Below are positions 28,248 to 36,215 of a stretch of 40,144 nt of DNA, piece by piece. The stretch is from assembly GCA_030611745.1 (NCBI GenBank), contig JAUWPF010000001.1, positions 1-40,144 of the forward strand. The letters run 5' to 3'. The notes under the pieces are model-generated. The model was given only the letters and a program-made list of their open reading frames with translations. It searched no databases and was not told where the DNA came from. Every line of letters begins with the position of its first letter. Position 1 is the first letter of the stretch. Source of the DNA: Chloroflexota bacterium. Its GTDB lineage: Bacteria; Chloroflexota; Dehalococcoidia; Dehalococcoidales; JAUWPF01. The translations under genes were made by a program, and so were the position numbers.

Positions 28248-29013
28248 TGACTACATCTCCTCTATTAGCTCCCGACTCCTTTAGCTTGTCGATCGACCCT
28301 GCTTCTTTTAAAGACAGGTTAGCCTTGTCCAGCAGTTCGGGACGGCGTTGCAGGGTACGCTGGATAGCCTGCTGGCGGCGCCACCTGGCAATCCGAGCAT
28401 GGTTTCCTGAAAGCAGGACCTCGGGTACTGACCATTCCCTGTATACTTCAGGGCGGGTGTATTGGGGGTACTCCAGAAGCCCGCTGGCATGAGAGTCGTC
28501 CACCGGTGAAGCCTCCGAACCAAGGACCCCGGGCAGTAGCCTGACCACGGCATCCACTACCACCATGGCCGCCAGCTCACCGCCACTGAGCACATAGTCA
28601 CCAATACTGACCTCATCAGTGACCAGGTATTGTCTTATTCGTTCGTCGACCCCTTCGTAGTGCCCGCAAATGAGTATCAGATGGCTGTGTTGTGATAGCT
28701 CGCGGGCGATTCGCTGGCAGAAGAGACGGCCCTGGGGGGTGAGCAAAATTACGGGCAGGGGGCGAGACTCCTTGTTACCACTCTCTGCTTTCAACTTCTC
28801 TACCGCCTCGAAAATGGGCTCGGGCTTGAGTACCATACCCGCGCCGCCCCCGTAAGCGTAGTCGTCAACGGTGTGGTGCCTGTCATGAGTGTAGTCCCGA
28901 ATGTTATGCAGGCTAATGCTAATCCGTTTCTGGTCGACAGCCCGTTTCAGGATACTGGCGTTAAAGGGCCCGCCAAACATCTCCGGAAACAGGGTCAAGA
29001 TATCAATATGCAC
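28207..29013 (-). CDS. trmD: tRNA (guanine37-N1)-methyltransferase
   Basis: 268 aa with canonical TrmD motifs ([48 protein letters not shown]). The C-terminal tail overlaps the rplS start. Confidence 0.95.
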
Positions 29014-29018
29014 TGACG

Positions 29019-29543
29019 CTAGTCCTTCCCTGCCTGGTGCTCGGTTATCTCCCCCTTGATAATTCCCACGGCATGGGGAATGGCGGGCAGGATTACCTCA
29101 AGGCACTCCCGGACTGCCCTCGGGCTGCCGGGCAGGTTGATGATGAGGCATTTTCCCCTGACTCCAGCCGTGGCCCGGCTCAGGATGGAAAATGGTGTCG
29201 TGTCGAAAGTCCTCATCCTCATTGCCTCGGCCAGGCCGGGCACGACCCTGTCCACTATGGAAAGGGTTGCCTCAGGAGTAACGTCACGCTGACTGAGGCC
29301 GGTGCCACCGGTGGTCAGGATAACGTCCATTCCTCCTTCATCCGCCCACCGGGCCAGTTTGCTAGCGATGATGTCTCTCTCATCGGGGACAATCTCATAC
29401 TCAACCACGTTGCTCTCCAGTCGGGCCAGGCTTTCCCTGATTGCCTGGCTGCTCTTATCCTGGCGCTCTCCCCGCCACCCCTTATCACTGATGGTAAGTA
29501 TACCCAGATTAAGCATAATGCCGCCTTTTGGAACAAGCTTCAT
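29019..29543 (-). CDS. mogA: MogA/MoaB-family molybdenum cofactor biosynthesis protein
   Basis: 174 aa with [10 protein letters not shown] and [19 protein letters not shown]. The true start may be the internal ATG at 29516 (MLNLGIL...). Confidence 0.85.
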
Positions 29544-29778
29544 TTTACCACATATGGGTTGTATCGCAAAATCAAGTGTTCCTTCCCTTCCATTTCTACC
29601 AGCGCCGCAACTGCATCGCTATCAAGGACACAATTCGCTACTTTGTTGGCTCAGGGTATTTATTTCCCAGCATAGCAGGCACTTAATCAGGATACAGTCA
29701 CTATGGAGCCAGTGACAAATGTAAGCTTGTCGTAAATCCGGGTGATTGGAGTGTTTGGTTCAAGGGCTCGAAAATTGC

Positions 29779-29807
29779 TTCATTTATTGTGGCGTCATCT
29801 GTATAAT
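29779..29807 (+). promoter_or_regulatory. possible promoter of the ABC-F gene
   Basis: TATAAT at 29802-29807, 16 nt before the ATG. Weak -35 TTCATT at 29779-29784 with a 17-nt spacer. Confidence 0.35.
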
Positions 29808-29823
29808 TACTTAGGTTGTAGAA

Positions 29824-31809
29824 ATGCTGGGTATTTCAGACATATCAAAGTCTTACGGGGATCAGACTCTATTCAGTGCTGTTACCTTTAATATGGGGGC
29901 AAGGGACCGCATAGCTATCATCGGGCCGAACGGCTCAGGGAAGACGACGCTGTTCGGTATTATCGCTGGGAATGTGCTCCCCGATTCCGGCAGTGTAAAT
30001 ATGCAGAGGGGAACTACAATTGGCTATCTGGAACAGGAAATTAGACCCTCTTCTGAGAGGCAATTGCTTGATGATGTCGCTAACGCGTCAACTAGGATAA
30101 GCAAGCTGGCGCATAAGATACAGGTTCTCCAAGAAGAATTGGCAGGGGGAGTGGATGGGGAAAGTTTGAAAGAACTCCTGCATGAGTTGGGTGAACTTCA
30201 GCATAGCTTCGAGTTTGCCGGTGGCTACAGCGCCGAACATGAGGCCAGGGCTGTCCTTTCCGGGTTAGGATTTGTGGAGTCTGACTTCCACCGCCCTCTA
30301 ACTGACTTCAGCGGTGGGTGGCTGATGCGGGCTGCACTGGCCAAACTTCTTCTTCTTTCCCCTGATGTACTCCTGCTTGATGAGCCGACAAACCATCTCG
30401 ATCTGGAGTCCTGTATTTGGTTTGAGCGTTACCTGGGAAGCTATCGTGGGGCGGTACTGGTCGTTTCGCACGACCGGGCATTCTTGAATCGAGTGGTAAG
30501 CAAAGTGCTTGCCATCGAGCAAGGTAAGTGCATCTTTCACCGTGGCAATTACGATAGTTTCGTTATAGCCAGAAAGAAAGAAATTGAGGTTACGGAAGCT
30601 ACGGCCAAAAGACAGAATCTCAAGATAAAGAAGGAGATGCGCTTCATCGAACGATTCCGTGCTAAGAATACCAAGGCAACTCAGGTTCAGAGCCGAATGA
30701 AACAGCTGACAAAGATGGAAAGAGTGGTAATCCCCAGAGCAACCAGGAAAATGCAATTCTCCTTCCCCGAACCGGTACGGAGCGGAGAGAGGGTTATCAC
30801 CCTCAATCATATCCTCAAGTCTTACGATGCAAATGTCGTTTACCGCGACCTTAATCTGGTCCTTAATCGTGGAGATAGGGTAGCTCTGGTAGGCCCCAAC
30901 GGTGCCGGTAAAACGACCCTGCTCAAGATCCTGGCCGGAGTGCTTCCTTTCGATAAGGGCGAGCGTAAATTAGGACATAATGTCATCACTGCCTATTATG
31001 CCCAGTACCAGCTTGAGCTTCTCGATCCAACAAATAATATACTGACTGAGCTGCAGAGCGTAGCTCAAGATGAACCAGAGCAGAAACTGAGGAGGATTCT
31101 CGGCGCCTTTCTCTTCAGCGGTGATGATGTATATAAAAAGATATCCGTCCTTTCCGGGGGTGAGAAGAGCCGCTTGGTGCTAACCAAGATGTTGATTCAA
31201 TCGGCCAATTTCTTGCTGATGGACGAGCCTACTAACCATCTTGATATTGCCTCGCGGGAGATACTGGCAGATGCCCTTGAAGCCTATCGCGGGAGCCTTT
31301 GTTTTATCACCCACGACCGGACGCTAATTCGCCAGATTGCAAATAAGATCATCGAGATAAGGGATGGCAACCTACAGGTATTAACCGGAAATTATGAAGA
31401 CTATCTCAATTGGAAGGAGTCTTTAGGACAAGGAGTTTCAAAGATTTCCGAAGTGCCGATGTCCTTAGCTATAGGAAAAGGTGCGACAAATAATAGACTG
31501 CGCCAGCGTAAGCTAATCGAGGGGGAACTAAGGAATAAGTATTACCGGGAGAGTGCCCCCACTAGAAAGCGAATAGCTGAAATCGAGGCAGAGCTTTCGG
31601 AGCTTGAGGCACAGTTTAGAGAAGTCGAGAGCTTGTTTTCCGATGAAGATCATTATGGATGTAGTGCGCAGGTTATCGCCACCATAGAGAAGCATCACGG
31701 ACTGAAGGAGATTATAAGTTCGCTTATAGAGGAATGGGAGCGGCTTTCTATAGAACTTGAGAGGATGAAACGAGAGTTTGAGAAAGCGAAGAGTACCACC
31801 GAGACTTAA
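29824..31809 (+). CDS. ABC-F family ATPase (two ABC cassettes, no membrane domain, C-terminal coiled coil)
   Basis: 661 aa. Two Walker A motifs (GPNGSGKTTLF; GPNGAGKTTLL), two ABC signatures (FSGGWLMR; LSGGEKSR), two Walker B motifs (LLLDEPTNHLD; LLMDEPTNHLD). Charged helical tail. Confidence 0.9.
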   Translation: MLGISDISKSYGDQTLFSAVTFNMGARDRIAIIGPNGSGKTTLFGIIAGNVLPDSGSVNMQRGTTIGYLEQEIRPSSERQLLDDVANASTRISKLAHKIQVLQEELAGGVDGESLKELLHELGELQHSFEFAGGYSAEHEARAVLSGLGFVESDFHRPLTDFSGGWLMRAALAKLLLLSPDVLLLDEPTNHLDLESCIWFERYLGSYRGAVLVVSHDRAFLNRVVSKVLAIEQGKCIFHRGNYDSFVIARKKEIEVTEATAKRQNLKIKKEMRFIERFRAKNTKATQVQSRMKQLTKMERVVIPRATRKMQFSFPEPVRSGERVITLNHILKSYDANVVYRDLNLVLNRGDRVALVGPNGAGKTTLLKILAGVLPFDKGERKLGHNVITAYYAQYQLELLDPTNNILTELQSVAQDEPEQKLRRILGAFLFSGDDVYKKISVLSGGEKSRLVLTKMLIQSANFLLMDEPTNHLDIASREILADALEAYRGSLCFITHDRTLIRQIANKIIEIRDGNLQVLTGNYEDYLNWKESLGQGVSKISEVPMSLAIGKGATNNRLRQRKLIEGELRNKYYRESAPTRKRIAEIEAELSELEAQFREVESLFSDEDHYGCSAQVIATIEKHHGLKEIISSLIEEWERLSIELERMKREFEKAKSTTET

Positions 31810-31824
31810 GTTTTTGGAGGTCTG

Positions 31825-31968
31825 ATGTATCTATTCGACACAGACATCTTGAGCAATCTTCTGCGGCGCACACCATCCACGGTGCTGATTGCGAAACTGG
31901 CTTCGGTGCCGCCTGAACAGCAGTTCACCTCCGCCATTACTCTGGGCAGGCTTTATTTTTGGGTGTGA
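31825..31968 (+). pseudogene. truncated PIN-domain (VapC-like) toxin remnant, 47 codons
   Basis: Not in the ORF track (too short). GGAGG 4 nt upstream of the ATG. Translation is MYLFDTDILSNLLRRTPSTVLIAKLASVPPEQQFTSAITLGRLYFWV-stop. This matches only the first third of a typical ~130-aa VapC (MxLLDTNxLSEL...SAITxxEL). No vapB-like gene precedes it. Confidence 0.55.
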
Positions 31969-32078
31969 ACCACTCATGCATTGTTAGTGCCACCTGCCTG
32001 TGTGTCTTATCGCCTTCACTTAACAAGATGAGTTGTTGTTACTTGAGGCTACGGCCTAACTATACCGGGGTTCGATTG

Positions 32079-32675
32079 CTATGCGACTTCCCCTCCCTCC
32101 TCTTGGACAGCAAGTAAGGGGTTAACGACTAACTCTTTCAGCTTCTCGCTAGAAGTTATTTGATAAAGTGGTATAGTGAAGGTCTCAGAACCCTTTAAAT
32201 TTTCCGAGTATTTGGAACCGCCAGTCCTTCGCCATCCCTCAAGGGCCTCATGCGACTTTCCGAAGAACCAGTATTTGCACATGTAATAATCATAATTCTT
32301 GTTGGCCACTTTAGCCGTCATAGGTTTCTTGTATTTAATGCAGCCGGCCGAGATCAGAGGCTCATCAATATCAGTGGGTAGGCTGGTATTTAGGTCCGAT
32401 GCAAAGTGAATGCTTACGAAAAGAATCTGGTCGATGCTCGGGTCATCACCACCTGAGGCTATGGGTACGTAGAAACGCACGGCCCATCGCGCATACCATC
32501 GCTCCGGCGTATTCAACGAGTATGAAAAACCAGAAGGTGCGGTAGTATTTGTTGGCTCCCACCCATGCTCTCCCATCAGGCGGTCGGCATCCATAAGCAG
32601 AAGCTGTCCCTGCTTGTATAATTTTGCTAGAGACTCAAATAAAGCCCTTGTTGGGCTTCCCATAGTTTCAGTCAT
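32079..32675 (-). CDS. hypothetical protein, 198 aa, no family recognised; downstream partner of the predicted nuclease
   Basis: The ATG overlaps the upstream stop in an ATGA junction (32672-32675). GAGGTGA Shine-Dalgarno sits about 6 nt upstream. No TM segment or known motif spotted. The region looks more AT-rich than its flanks. Confidence 0.6.
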   Translation of the reverse strand: MTETMGSPTRALFESLAKLYKQGQLLLMDADRLMGEHGWEPTNTTAPSGFSYSLNTPERWYARWAVRFYVPIASGGDDPSIDQILFVSIHFASDLNTSLPTDIDEPLISAGCIKYKKPMTAKVANKNYDYYMCKYWFFGKSHEALEGWRRTGGSKYSENLKGSETFTIPLYQITSSEKLKELVVNPLLAVQEEGGEVA

Positions 32676-33478
32676 CTCATCACCTCGAATACATAATCGA
32701 TATCTAACGACTCAGGAATAACCGGCCAAGAATACTTGGTTGGAGTAAGGTGGTAGAAGTCAGGTAAAACGAAACACTCAGTAATGGGCTCCACTCCGCC
32801 GAACATTATTAGTCCTTTTCTCAACAATAATGCGAGCATATCTGCCATTACAGCCCTATTCTCCGGGACGCTTTCTTGCTCAAGACTTTGCTCCAGAATG
32901 GGTGGTAAAAATCTCCACGATACCCAAAATATTTCACCATCTTTGTTACGTTTGCGCCGATATTCGGCCAGTGACTTCACCAGCAGGTCTCGTGGAATTC
33001 CCATGTTTTGGGTTACGAAAAGAAGCGCACGTGAAGCGATTTCCAAATGTGTCCCCCAGCCTAAAGTGGCACAGGACACTGCGTCTAGATTATCCAGTTC
33101 ACGAGCTAACTGGTCGTTTGGTTCGGCTCGCTCGTCTTCCTCGCTGGAAAGCCCCGAATAGTACTTGGCTTCAATCACTACCAAGTGCACCTGGTTTTCT
33201 TCTGTTTCAAGACAAAGTACCACATCTGGTTCACAAGGAGTGCGGTTTGCTAATTTCAGCCAAGGCCAGAATGAATAGTGAACCCTGATGACTTCACCCT
33301 GGATTGTCAGGATATTGCCATGAAGCGAGTGGGCTGTCTGCAAGAATGGAATTAAGGCTTTCTGAGCTGGCAGATATCTCATACAGCCAAAAATGTCAGA
33401 AGTAAGGAGGTCCTCCATGCGCTCGGAAAGGTTGGTGCCTGTTTCCGAGATTTTCCCTCGTATCTCCGCTATGCTCAT
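32672..33478 (-). CDS. predicted PD-(D/E)xK-fold nuclease, 268 aa
   Basis: Motif layout is an N-terminal acidic helix (ERMEDLLTSDIFGCMRY), then CEPD85VVLCLE, then after 17 residues LVVIE103AK105YY, then a downstream DQLAREL helix. That is the classic D...(D/E)xK arrangement. The C-terminal ~100 aa is unassigned. Confidence 0.65.
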   Translation of the reverse strand: MSIAEIRGKISETGTNLSERMEDLLTSDIFGCMRYLPAQKALIPFLQTAHSLHGNILTIQGEVIRVHYSFWPWLKLANRTPCEPDVVLCLETEENQVHLVVIEAKYYSGLSSEEDERAEPNDQLARELDNLDAVSCATLGWGTHLEIASRALLFVTQNMGIPRDLLVKSLAEYRRKRNKDGEIFWVSWRFLPPILEQSLEQESVPENRAVMADMLALLLRKGLIMFGGVEPITECFVLPDFYHLTPTKYSWPVIPESLDIDYVFEVMR

Positions 33479-33486
33479 CGGCTCTA

Positions 33487-33515
33487 ATTATACGACAACG
33501 TTATCTGCTGAGCAA
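33487..33515 (-). promoter_or_regulatory. possible promoter giving a leaderless transcript of the two-gene module
   Basis: Minus strand reads TTGCTC (33515-33510), 17 nt, TATAAT (33492-33487). Only 8 nt separate the -10 from the ATG at 33478, and there is no Shine-Dalgarno. Confidence 0.35.
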
Positions 33516-33660
33516 TTGTCAGGATTGGAGTGAACCCCTGAGGCTGGACACAATGGGTTAGGAAGATTAGGAAGGTCTGGCAGGGTCAGAGTATAATCGA
33601 TAGGAGAAAGGACCTTATACTCTCCAATGAGTGAAAGTCATAAGTCATCTAAAAGTGACC

Positions 33661-34500
33661 CTACTGTACCTCATTCGCCTGCCTTAAATTCCATATCACT
33701 TCGAAGAAATGCCGCGTCCACTCATTGGCTACCTTCCGGTTAGCGCAGAAGGTGATGCGTAAGTCAGGATGAAGGGCATATAGCTCGGCAATTGCTTTGG
33801 CGCAGAAGCCGGGATTATAGTGATGCAGCTTCTTGGGGTTCAGAAAATCGGCATAAGGGGCCTCGATTACCAGGGCATGGTTATCATGGGCAGCCAGCTC
33901 GGCAAGCCTCTGGTGCAGTACCGGCATCGTTCCGAAGTCGGCCAGCAGGTTGTCCAGTGTCTTGCGCTCCACTACCGCCAGCATCTTATCCCCATCTATA
34001 AGTGCATAATCACCGGCAGAAATAGTGCCGCGCTCAGTAACCGCGCCGGGGAAACGCCACGGGTATTTCTCGTTGCTGTGTATTCGAACAACCATTTCGG
34101 TATCGCCCTTGCGTGAGACCAGTTTAAAGGCAGGGCGATGCTGTTCGATGGACCTCTGGGTCAGCCAGAAGATTTGCTCGTAGCTCTCACCCGGTCTGCC
34201 CTTGTACGTCTTCTTCAGGAAGAGAAAATCGCAGCGCTTGTAGCGCTTGCGGTCGAGCACAACGGAGATACGGCGGCCGCGCTCATTGAAGGCGATGATA
34301 TCCACCCGCTCCAGTTCTTCCAACACCTCATCGGGTGGTGGCGGCTCGTCTTCACGCAGGCAGAAAATATGCCTGCCCGCCGCCGGCCATCGGTCCTGCG
34401 TACGGAGTACCAGCCACAGCTTATCCCCTCTCAGAATCTGCAGGCGGTAAGGGAAGCGGTCACTGACACATCGCTCTAGAATCCAGGTTCCTTTTATCAC
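33661..34500 (-). CDS. ERCC4 (XPF/Mus81-type) nuclease-domain protein with an unrecognised N-terminal domain
   Basis: 279 aa. The C-terminal half carries GDYALIDGDKMLAVVERKTLDNLLADF (GDY-x12-ERK-x2-D), then ALVIEAPY. The N-terminal ~135 aa has no motif I recognise. GTG start; TATAAT (34513-34508) lies 7 nt upstream. Confidence 0.7.
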   Translation of the reverse strand: MIKGTWILERCVSDRFPYRLQILRGDKLWLVLRTQDRWPAAGRHIFCLREDEPPPPDEVLEELERVDIIAFNERGRRISVVLDRKRYKRCDFLFLKKTYKGRPGESYEQIFWLTQRSIEQHRPAFKLVSRKGDTEMVVRIHSNEKYPWRFPGAVTERGTISAGDYALIDGDKMLAVVERKTLDNLLADFGTMPVLHQRLAELAAHDNHALVIEAPYADFLNPKKLHHYNPGFCAKAIAELYALHPDLRITFCANRKVANEWTRHFFEVIWNLRQANEVQ

Positions 34501-34648
34501 TGTGATGATTATACCGCAAAAGTCAAATCCGCAACGAACTTATCATCGAATCGTTCAATTGCCCTGTTAGTCCTCTCCCGAGTTTGCGCTGGAAGTCTGT
34601 GAATCTGTCGGTGGAAAAGGCGGTCTTTAAAAAATTTAGCCAAAAGAC

Positions 34649-34679
34649 TTGACAAAGAGGGGCAATTGTGTTTTACAAT
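34649..34679 (+). promoter_or_regulatory. mraZ (dcw cluster) promoter candidate
   Basis: TTGACA at 34649-34654 and TACAAT at 34674-34679 (spacer 19; or TTACAA with spacer 18), about 55 nt upstream of the mraZ ATG. Confidence 0.5.
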
Positions 34680-34683
34680 GGTA

Positions 34684-34703
34684 GAAAGTGGTGGAAAGTG
34701 GTA
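34684..34703 (+). promoter_or_regulatory. tandem GAAAGTGGT(G/A) repeats, candidate MraZ operator
   Basis: GAAAGTGGTG GAAAGTGGTA is a perfect 9-nt repeat with 10-bp period, immediately downstream of the -10. MraZ is known to bind direct repeats of this periodicity in its own promoter region. Confidence 0.5.
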
Positions 34704-34731
34704 AACTAGGGGAACAAGTGTAGGCTGAGAT

Positions 34732-35160
34732 ATGTTTTTTGGTGAATTTGAGTACAAGGTAGATGAAAAGGGGAGGGTGCCTGTCCCGCCCCGCTTCAGG
34801 AGGGAGCTAAAGGAGGGGATAGTACTGGTGGCGGGGGTGGAGAAGTGTATCACGGCTTATCCGCTAGCCGAGTGGAAGAAGCTGGCGGGTACCCTTACTA
34901 CCGGCTCGTTGACACCGAATGATAAGATGAGGCGCTTGAGCCGGGCTGTTTTCGCTGCTGCCTTTAGCCTCAACCTTGATGGGCAGGGCAGGGTAGCGCT
35001 CCCGGTGCCGCTGCGGCAGCATGCCGGGATTGAGGACGAAGTAATTATCGCCGGGGTCAATAGCTATCTTGAACTGTGGGATAAAGCTGAATGGGAGGCG
35101 GAGAAGGCTATTAGCCGGGAGCAGGCGTGGCAGGATATAGAAAGCCTGGAGAGGCGCTGA
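34732..35160 (+). CDS. mraZ: transcriptional regulator MraZ
   Basis: 142 aa with two SpoVT/AbrB-like halves ([23 protein letters not shown]...; [19 protein letters not shown]). Confidence 0.95.
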
Positions 35161-36215
35161 TGGTTACAGATATGTCAACCTCCAGCCATACCCCGGTTCT
35201 GCTTGAAGAAACGGTCCAGGCACTGGCGGTTCAGCCTGGAGGGCGTTATATTGATTGCACGGTTGGTGGTGGTGGGCATGCGGCTGCCATTCTGGACCGC
35301 AGTTCCCCCGGGGGGCAGCTTCTGGGGATTGATGCTGACCCGGAGGCGATAAAAGTAGCGAGGACAAGGCTTGAAGCCCACAGCGGCTCGAGCCTGTTTG
35401 TTAATGAGAACTTTTTAAATCTACAGGCAAGCTGCATCAGGTACGATTTCTTCCCGGTACATGGTATTCTCTTTGACCTGGGCCTGTCATCACTTCAGCT
35501 TGGTAGCCCGGCTCGCGGCTTCAGCTTTCAGCATGAGGGGCCGCTGGATATGCGTTTGAGCCCGGCTCAGGAGCTTACCGCTGATGAGATCGTCAACACC
35601 TATTCCGAGAACGAGTTGGCCCGGCTGATAGGGACGTATGGTGAGGAAGGCTACAGCCGTCAAATAGCCCGCCGTATCGTGCAGAAACGCCCCTTGCGGA
35701 CTACCCTTGAGCTGGCCCGGGTGGTAGAACAGGCTACCGGGGGCAGAAGGGGTAAAATCCACCCCGCCACCAGGACCTTTCAGGCACTGAGGATAGCCGT
35801 TAATCAAGAGCTTGAGCATCTGGAGGCAGCGCTTGAACAGGCAACCAGTCTTCTTGGTTTTCAGGGCAGGCTGGTTGTCATAAGCTATCATTCCCTGGAA
35901 GACCGCATCGTGAAGCGGTTTATGCTTAAGGAAGCCAGGGACTGTATCTGCCCTCCGGGTACACCGAGCTGTGTCTGTGGGCATACTGCCTCTTTAAGGT
36001 TACTTACCAGAAAGGTTATCAGGCCGTCTCCGGCTGAGGTTGGGTTTAATCCGCGCAGCCGCAGCGCCAGATTGAGAGCGGCGGAGCGCTTACTTTCCCG
36101 TGACGAACTGGATGAGACGATTGAGAAGCTGTGTTTTTCGGTTGCTGGCAGTAGCACCGTGTGGAAGCGTCCCGCTTTGCTCAAGGAAGTGAGAAGGGCC
36201 TTTTCCGCGGTCTAG
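35160..36215 (+). CDS. rsmH: 16S rRNA (cytosine1402-N4)-methyltransferase
   Basis: [34 protein letters not shown] and [11 protein letters not shown] motifs. I prefer the ATG at 35160 (overlapping the mraZ TGA) to the track start at 35127. About 45 aa longer at the C-terminus than typical RsmH. Confidence 0.93.

Follow-up and report, generated by a model that had tools for sequence, protein, structure and literature searches.

The window analysed here, a stretch of 40,144 nucleotides (nt) from a Chloroflexota bacterium (GenBank assembly GCA_030611745.1, contig JAUWPF010000001.1), harbors on its minus strand two adjacent genes, termed A and B in the following, which are the subject of this report. 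According to the list of open reading frames (ORFs), gene A (32672..33478) starts with ATG and encodes a predicted PD-(D/E)xK nuclease of 268 amino acids (aa), and gene B (32079..32675), likewise with an ATG start, encodes a 198-aa protein of an unannotated family. The stop codon TGA of A (32674-32672) overlaps the start codon ATG of B (32675-32673) to give an ATGA at 32672-32675, and the Shine-Dalgarno sequence of B, GAGGTG at 32686-32681, sits inside gene A, separated from B's ATG by a 5-nt spacer. By direct reading of the sequence, this translational-coupling junction spans 32672..32686 on the minus strand. A preliminary description of this DNA had reported the two minus-strand ORFs, their ATGA overlap and the internal Shine-Dalgarno sequence, and all three are borne out.

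The tight junction is a recurrent property of the pair. In 35 strictly filtered intact pairs from several phyla, the ORF-based gap between A and B lies anywhere between -110 and +61 nt; in 19 of the pairs it is between -8 and +4 nt, the genes overlapping by 4 or 8 nt or standing at most 4 nt apart. Furthermore, each of the two genes has approximately 200-270 close homologs of the same length in metagenomes, and gene A has a ratio of nonsynonymous to synonymous substitution rates (dN/dS) of 0.10-0.18, which indicates purifying selection. The same-length homologs, the low dN/dS of A and the tight junction across phyla together establish that A and B are real genes and that their layout is beyond chance.

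By motif and predicted topology, A is predicted to be a PD-(D/E)xK nuclease. Its AlphaFold2 model, with a predicted local distance difference test score (pLDDT) of 74, a predicted TM-score (pTM) of 0.73 and pLDDT values of 87-94 across residues 31-100, shows the order alpha(17-33)-beta(63-70)-beta(86-92)-beta(96-104)-alpha(123-131)-beta(146-156), which is the canonical alpha-beta-beta-beta-alpha-beta arrangement. The motif residues are P84-D85 and E103-A-K105, the latter within LVVIEAKYY; in the model, strand 2 begins with D85, strand 3 ends with E103-x-K105, and helix 1 carries E22/D23. The corresponding codons on the minus strand are 33415-33413 for E22, 33412-33410 for D23, 33226-33224 for D85, 33172-33170 for E103, 33166-33164 for K105 and 33112-33110 for Q123. 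None of the six residues varies in 64 diverse relatives with 28-55% identity to A, and E22, D23, D85, E103 and K105 are also kept in every locus checked. The catalytic layout first proposed for A, an acidic N-terminal helix followed by the D85 and E103/K105 motifs and a glutamine-containing helix, therefore stands, but E83, which had been counted as part of it, is only about 90% conserved in the 64 relatives and is replaced by Q in some close ones, and hence is not a required residue.

Database searches with A returned distant matches to the same nuclease class. In Pfam, PDDEXK_7 was matched below threshold (E 0.004; 17.7 bits against a cutoff of 22.1) and PDDEXK_13 at E 0.043; at E <=0.01, these two families match 7 and 6 of the 64 relatives, respectively, and weak Pfam matches also go to REase-ARP. 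Sequence searches of the PDB with close and broad A profiles gave nothing meaningful. A Foldseek comparison of the A model to the PDB returned mostly PD-(D/E)xK nucleases, with McrC at the top, with R2 endonuclease, Shedu, Card1, Cap4, ACE1, Hachiman and PspGI among the best matches, and with several Type II restriction enzymes also in the list. Since every one of these matches has an E value of 0.009 or weaker, the fold assignment rests on topology and motif. According to an exhaustive profile search (E <=0.001), the superfamily of A comprises 1,535 clusters when grouped at 50% identity, and most of its proteins stand alone and are 245-300 aa long; A itself is a stand-alone protein, approximately 250-300 aa long in its family, with its own conserved N-terminus. 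The extreme N-terminus (residues 1-22, 33478-33413) carries a strongly conserved M-x-x-A-E-I-x-G-K-I-S, with A4 and K9 conserved to at least 90% in the broad family; predicted at pLDDT <50, it may be an interaction peptide. Also, the loop after K105 reads S-G-K-S-S in the broad family, as compared to S-G-L-S-S in the clade of the window.

The partner protein B belongs to no annotated family, but it is not an orphan. It had been described as lacking a recognisable family or transmembrane segment, and this was confirmed: no match was found in Pfam, NCBIfam, PADLOC or PHROG, a Pfam scan of 35 diverse B members gave only scattered single matches at E >0.01, and the maximum Kyte-Doolittle value of any 19-aa window is 0.85, such that no transmembrane segment is present. 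RefSeq names both the A and the B genes "hypothetical protein". In the AlphaFold2 model of B (pLDDT 77.6, pTM 0.77), a beta domain is predicted in the center, framed by a long helix at the N-terminus (8-35) and a further helix at the C-terminus (176-193). PDB sequence searches with close and broad B profiles found only designed helical proteins that align to the N-terminal helix, and the best Foldseek matches (E 0.18 in the PDB and 0.04 in BFVD, TM <0.3) revealed no credible fold relative. In the broad B family, W60 is the sole invariant residue, while conservation reaches 85% or more at S51, P57, R67, P106, G38, G111 and P169, and the conserved family motif, S-x5-P-x2-W-x6-R, lies in the central beta domain. 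Because the conserved positions contain no acidic or histidine catalytic constellation, B looks non-enzymatic. Both proteins are acidic, with a median isoelectric point (pI) of 5.5 for A and 5.1 for B. The idea that B might be a degenerate copy of A was rejected, the hhalign probability being 2%.

The distribution of the pair was determined in 63 loci with A relatives, one genome per species, which were collected by a pattern scan with the peptide EDLLTS[DN][IV]F and are numbered with the prefix L. They come from Chloroflexota, Bacillota (Neobacillus, Niallia, Sporolactobacillus, Anoxybacillus, B. pseudomycoides), Nitrospirales, Planctomycetota, Desulfobacterota and Rokubacteria among the bacteria, and from Methanosarcina, Methanoperedens, Methanomethylovorans, Bathyarchaeota and Thermoplasmata among the archaea. 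Whether homologs of the two genes co-occur had been raised as a question, and they do so in 46 of the 51 loci with an intact A-like gene, where B is adjacent, fused or separated from A by an insertion sequence (IS). An intact A next to an intact B was found in 36 loci, and six have an intact A with a short or split B. Three loci encode an A-B fusion protein of 453-457 aa, all in Bacillaceae (Anoxybacillus, Thermolongibacillus; L027 2106-3479, L030 245-1618, L049 6001-7362); the fusion in L027, of 457 aa, belongs to Anoxybacillus kestanbolensis. In one locus (L017 6759-8818), a 583-aa ORF, transposase-like by eye, splits A and B apart and leaves A intact. The remaining loci have a split A with B (three) or without B (one), a fragment of A only (eight) or an A-like gene without B (five).

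With a profile built only from close homologs of B, 28 loci were found to have a B-like ORF (E <=1e-4) immediately 3' of A and in the same orientation, and after one iteration of the profile, held-out full-length B partners from Bacillota and elsewhere were recovered at E 1e-18 to 1e-36. Conversely, look-ups seeded with B found A upstream in all cases. The evolutionary distances of A and B co-vary (r = 0.855, Mantel 0/2000), and no third gene recurs beside them, since no family occurs in more than three loci among 314 neighbors of the 63 loci. In the fusions, the B part begins at approximately residue 232, which implies that the last 40 or so residues of A, modelled with low confidence, serve as a linker or are dispensable there; when A is modelled alone, the tail of low pLDDT covers residues 227-268. 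The A-like genes without B include the four most divergent ones (L062 5992-7503 and L066-L068), which encode proteins of 244-503 aa. In L066, L067 and L068, unrelated ORFs of 114-119 aa without a PADLOC match lie downstream of the A-like gene, which suggests that sister cassettes with other partners may exist.

Copies of A that are 57-87% identical to that of the window occupy unrelated sites, and their contexts differ even at 80-87% identity. One copy lies by thyA and a ribosomal-protein operon (L001), another by a DUF2779 gene and a serine recombinase, and a third by genes for a UvrD-Cas4 helicase, a methyltransferase and Hypoth_Ymh; further copies are found beside a uracil-DNA glycosylase (UDG) gene or beside Hypoth_Ymh together with an IS21 element. 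The context of the window is common only to a near-identical strain. Moreover, the pair is present on Bacillus megaplasmids, and it abuts an integrase gene in one Bacillus genome. Decayed copies are common, as 12 of the 63 loci have only split or fragmentary A genes. With respect to a viral origin, no relatives were found in IMG/VR contigs or GenBank phages. A search for empty sites by way of the ERCC4-like gene next to the pair recovered no empty/filled pair, that gene being itself mobile. The pairing is thus kept across phyla, in both domains and in unrelated contexts, and it is sealed by fusion in three loci, which supports the conclusion that A and B form a conserved, self-contained and horizontally mobile two-gene module, in agreement with the earlier proposal of a horizontally acquired operon.

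The operon in the window is itself a recombinant, in which A and the terminal helices of B come from one lineage and the central domain of B from another. By nucleotide comparison, the segment from the other allele lineage covers 32196..32570 on the minus strand, approximately aa 36-160 or some 125 codons. Aligned to locus L008, the window is 85-98% identical at the nt level throughout A and as far as nt ~90 of B; for B residues ~36-160 the value is only about 50-65%, and from B residue ~165 on it is about 80% again. The center of the window's B resembles the B of the L006 type, where B has 68% aa identity as compared to 57% for A; in other close pairs, B is mostly as conserved as A, or more. 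Three independent metagenome assemblies contain the mosaic operon with 99.9% identity, and it is therefore not an assembly chimera. We infer from this mosaic that the terminal helices of B may be co-adapted to A, and that the central domain may be an exchangeable functional module.

A further clue to the role of B comes from its natural loss. In at least seven loci with a disrupted B, A is full length and retains E22, D23, D85, E103 and K105. An IS21-family insertion in L074 (7804-10818) cuts B into residues 1-137 and 135-193 next to an intact A that has kept its catalytic residues, and B is truncated or frameshifted beside an intact A in L031, L036, L037, L038, L046 and L064, among them three Sporolactobacillus loci, two of which are from culture-collection strains. 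The persistence of an intact A where B is broken favors the view that B is a subunit that A may need or that may gate it, rather than an antidote. The fusions and the translational coupling, for their part, argue for a physical complex of the two proteins.

The genes and signals around the pair provide some further context. The G+C contents of A (0.470) and B (0.476) are the lowest of all genes in the window, where the 28 other genes have a mean of 0.539 (standard deviation 0.025). The compositional contrast noticed at the outset thus exists, but the ranges given for it, 38-50% against 52-65%, were overstated, and the housekeeping ABC-F gene that adjoins the pair has a value of 0.485, so that the pair is not alone in its dip and the compositional argument is weakened. 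A possible -10 box, TATAAT, can be read in the sequence at 33487..33492 on the minus strand; it is a perfect match and lies 8 nt before the ATG of A, though it was not reported by the consensus promoter scan owing to the lack of a good -35 element. One might speculate that the A-B transcript is nearly leaderless. Otherwise, the scan for promoters and terminators around the pair gave background level only. The pair is not flanked by tRNA genes or by any convincing direct or inverted repeat, a search of its surroundings for terminal repeats and target duplications was negative, and 29000-36000 contains no structured RNAs.

Upstream of A lies an ORF with an ERCC4 domain (33661..34500, minus strand, 279 aa; Pfam E 3.9e-6), which is not part of the module and which substantiates the earlier remark that a further nuclease gene adjoins the pair. 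In 80 metagenome loci with relatives of this gene that are 53-98% identical, no close A, B or ABC-F gene lies beside any of them, and mraZ is kept in one. Its 203 neighbors fall into 163 clusters, such that it has no fixed neighbors, and it does not recur beside A-B; it is an independently mobile accessory gene. An ORF of about 146 aa, GIY-YIG/DUF123-like by eye, follows the ERCC4-like gene in eight loci. On the other side of the pair, and likewise outside the module, a 47-aa ORF on the plus strand (31825..31968) starts 16 nt past the ABC-F stop codon. It had been taken for a decayed toxin gene, and its sole PDB matches are indeed to the PIN toxin FitB, residues 1-44 aligning to residues 1-44, but only at marginal phmmer E values of 0.07-0.13; it has no Pfam match, no antitoxin gene upstream and no continuation in other frames. 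It is probably the remnant of a PIN-domain toxin gene of the VapC/FitB type. Given that the ERCC4 gene is itself mobile, the gap between ABC-F and mraZ appears as a small hotspot with at least two independent inserts and a toxin remnant.

How can these observations be reconciled in terms of function? We tentatively regard A-B as a mobile, self-contained nuclease module with two subunits, of the kind that acts in defence or abortive infection, in which B would regulate, sense or target, and we would put the chance of this somewhat below even. The defence role is suggested by the genomic behavior of the pair and by the distant homology of A to PDC-M15A, the first component of a candidate system in PADLOC. 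In such a module, A and B would be made in a fixed ratio from one translationally coupled transcript and would form a stable heteromeric complex, as is indirectly indicated by their adjacency, co-divergence and fusions. A would be the effector, a metal-dependent PD-(D/E)xK DNA endonuclease whose catalytic center, judging from the invariant residues and the predicted fold, would be intact. B would serve not as a neutralising antitoxin but in regulation, sensing or targeting, as a subunit on which A depends for its action or which gates it. The terminal helices of B probably dock to A, and recognition of the trigger or substrate probably falls to its central beta domain, in which the S-x5-P-x2-W-x6-R motif lies and which lineages exchange. 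Upon encountering foreign DNA or a cue of infection, the complex would then cut DNA, which could provide defence against phages or mobile elements. It is possible, but rather doubtful, that the pair represents a widespread and so far undescribed two-subunit immune nuclease of Bacteria and Archaea that is distinct from PDC-M15. In that case, B would be an exchangeable sensor or specificity module, its fold having no relative in the PDB or in the viral structure library, and its helices would dock while the swapped central domain sets recognition; nuclease-based immunity would thereby gain a new family of sensors.

Several observations weigh against the proposal of a defence module. All Foldseek matches of A are non-significant (E 0.009-0.08, TM-score <=0.3), and its match to PDC-M15A is weak and largely confined to the N-terminal 100 residues. 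The B of the window has no PADLOC match at E <=1, PDC-M15B included, so that PADLOC would call no system at this locus. Since a single peptide pattern served to collect the loci, the pairing frequency is valid for the members of the A superfamily that it covers. The loss of B in the natural knockouts may have happened recently, or the operons concerned may be silenced. As to the surroundings, the 149 nearest neighbors in 44 loci are mostly housekeeping genes (ilvD, hypD, thyA, SRP54 and others), and neither they nor the contexts of the window's relatives show an embedding in BREX, DISARM or type I restriction-modification (RM) systems. Defence-like genes (PDC-S11, RT-protease, Schlafen/AlbA_2, WYL, Csa3) are only a minority of these neighbors and were counted without a background set, such that no enrichment is claimed. 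The genomic neighborhood had been called the typical footprint of a defence system in the preliminary description; across the 63 genomes, this footprint is weak.

Among the alternatives, a type II-like toxin-antitoxin or addiction module would at first glance fit a small overlapping two-gene operon that has no third partner, is distributed patchily as a mobile unit and decays frequently. A would be a DNA-cleaving toxin that B neutralises, with cell death upon loss of the module and with or without an effect on phages. That both proteins are acidic and B carries no enzymatic motif would also suit such a pair, and the PIN-toxin remnant next door shows that modules of this kind land in this gap. 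Nonetheless, we consider this explanation, which had been put forward as a toxin-immunity or toxin-antitoxin option from the beginning, to be fairly unlikely. A toxin gene should not be tolerated once its antitoxin is lost, yet, reading the genes alone, A is intact with its catalytic residues in at least seven loci with a B that is truncated, frameshifted or interrupted by IS21. In the operon, the toxin-like gene precedes that of B, which, at ~200 aa, contains no Pfam domain, be it helix-turn-helix (HTH), ribbon-helix-helix (RHH) or AbrB. Furthermore, a labile antitoxin does not fit with stable covalent fusions such as those of A and B; defence proteins in which toxin and antitoxin are fused do exist (CapRel), but these act as sensors. 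For a polymorphic toxin with its immunity protein, A is too clearly a stand-alone protein with its own N-terminus, and it is fused to B in three genomes. A different possibility is that A-B is a heteromeric endonuclease of the restriction type that lacks a cognate methyltransferase, for instance a modification-dependent, Type IV-like enzyme in which A cuts and B reads the DNA or a modified base. The Foldseek ranking of McrC and several Type II restriction enzymes, the weak matches to PDDEXK_7 and REase-ARP, and the resemblance of the domain swap in B to an exchange of specificity domains all point in this direction, and no methyltransferase recurs beside the pair, as would be expected for Type IV enzymes. 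However, B is unlike the modified-base readers or DNA-binding folds in the PDB, a GTPase or AAA+ motor of the McrB kind is absent, and both subunits are acidic, and we therefore rate this as unlikely. In practice, it is a sub-case of the defence hypothesis and inseparable from it in silico.

The mobility of the pair might also be an end in itself. PD-(D/E)xK homing endonucleases exist, and A could be a free-standing enzyme of this type that spreads itself, together with a helper, into intergenic gaps. This would be in line with the fact that the pair alone is the moving unit, that it sits in short gaps between conserved genes, and that no transposase or integrase recurs with it. The absence of detectable terminal repeats or target duplications around the pair and the failure to recover an empty and filled site that would show precise insertion speak against it, and the need for an obligate 200-aa partner would be left unexplained, such that we grant this possibility only a small chance. 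Smaller still is the chance that A-B is a housekeeping or repair complex, consisting of a structure-specific endonuclease and an accessory subunit, whose mobility is one of appearance only. The strong purifying selection on A would be compatible with this, as would the many neighbors with roles in DNA metabolism or core functions (UDG, RNase HII, UvrB and RuvABC in L073; thyA in L001). Such a complex would, however, hardly show a complete lack of synteny among copies that are 80-87% identical, a sporadic distribution across domains, frequent pseudogenisation and IS disruption, a deviant G+C content, or a presence on megaplasmids and beside integrases.

If A-B is indeed an immune module, it would be a small nuclease system of two proteins in which the regulatory or sensing subunit is of a new kind. 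The pair is common to bacteria and archaea and abundant in the poorly studied Chloroflexota of the subsurface, and since PADLOC-DB v2.0.0 flags A weakly and B not at all, the cassette goes uncounted by PADLOC. In addition, the natural fusions, the natural B knockouts and the mosaic B allele offer experimental handles on how a partner controls a PD-(D/E)xK effector. If, by contrast, it is a selfish or addiction module, it would be an ordinary addition to a crowded class, and in either case A-B is one more candidate in a field that has hundreds.

It is instructive to compare the pair to known systems. The library used for this purpose, PADLOC-DB v2.0.0 (2023), covers systems described up to 2023, and neither protein matches a component of its named systems (Hachiman, Shedu, Gabija and others), A matching PDC-M15A alone and B nothing. 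The preliminary description had not been able to match the pair to a named system, which holds for B; for A, however, four out of five PDC-M15A models give matches with E values from 4.7e-10 to 6.4e-6, mostly over residues 12-108 and in one model over 7-218, and 62 of the 64 relatives match PDC-M15A models at E 1e-6 to 1e-16. According to the preprint by Payne et al. 2024 (10.1101/2024.01.29.577857), PDC-M15 is a two-gene "phage defence candidate" (cassette CAS_00081, FAM_00087>>FAM_00103, 241 RefSeq instances) that was proposed because it is found inside BREX, DISARM or type I RM systems, although not every homolog has to be embedded in this way. PDC-M15 is like A-B in being a two-gene cassette with a subunit homologous to gene A and in having no assigned mechanism, but the match of A is distant, and the B of the window matches no PDC-M15B model. 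Likewise, 15 further ORFs in the B position from diverse loci, 11 of them clear B homologs, had no PADLOC match, PDC-M15B included, and the most divergent A-like loci and a Bacillus plasmid pair showed a weak PDC-M15A match without a PDC-M15B partner; a tblastn search of plasmids with divergent A-like proteins found nothing. A is thus a distant relative of PDC-M15A rather than a member of the clusters behind the models, and a very remote kinship of the two cassettes is possible. A literature search returned no paper with PDC-M15, with the RefSeq accessions of a Bacillus pair, or with DUF4143 in connection with defence.

The other comparisons are of a more general kind. A linked cognate methyltransferase, as in Type I-III restriction-modification, is not found among the recurrent Pfam families of the neighbors. 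With McrBC and the heteromeric restriction endonucleases, the pair has in common that the best fold match of A is McrC, that there is a separate non-catalytic subunit and that no methyltransferase is linked, but it has no AAA+ GTPase of the McrB type, and B is unrelated to the specificity subunits in the PDB and Pfam. It shares with type II toxin-antitoxin systems and CapRel the compact overlapping bicistron, the patchy mobile distribution and the occasional fusion; it differs from the type II systems in its gene order, in the lack of a DNA-binding antitoxin fold in B and in the survival of A when B is broken. Finally, Hachiman (HamA and HamB), Shedu (SduA), Cap4 and Card1 are all among the top structural matches of A. 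There is no match of A-B to the hidden Markov models of HamA, HamB or SduA, and its partner is a 200-aa protein without a known fold rather than a helicase, a SAVED or a CARF domain. What these systems have in common with the pair is a PD-(D/E)xK effector of similar size that is gated by a partner or sensor, and in this sense A resembles the nuclease effectors of defence systems and would work like them.

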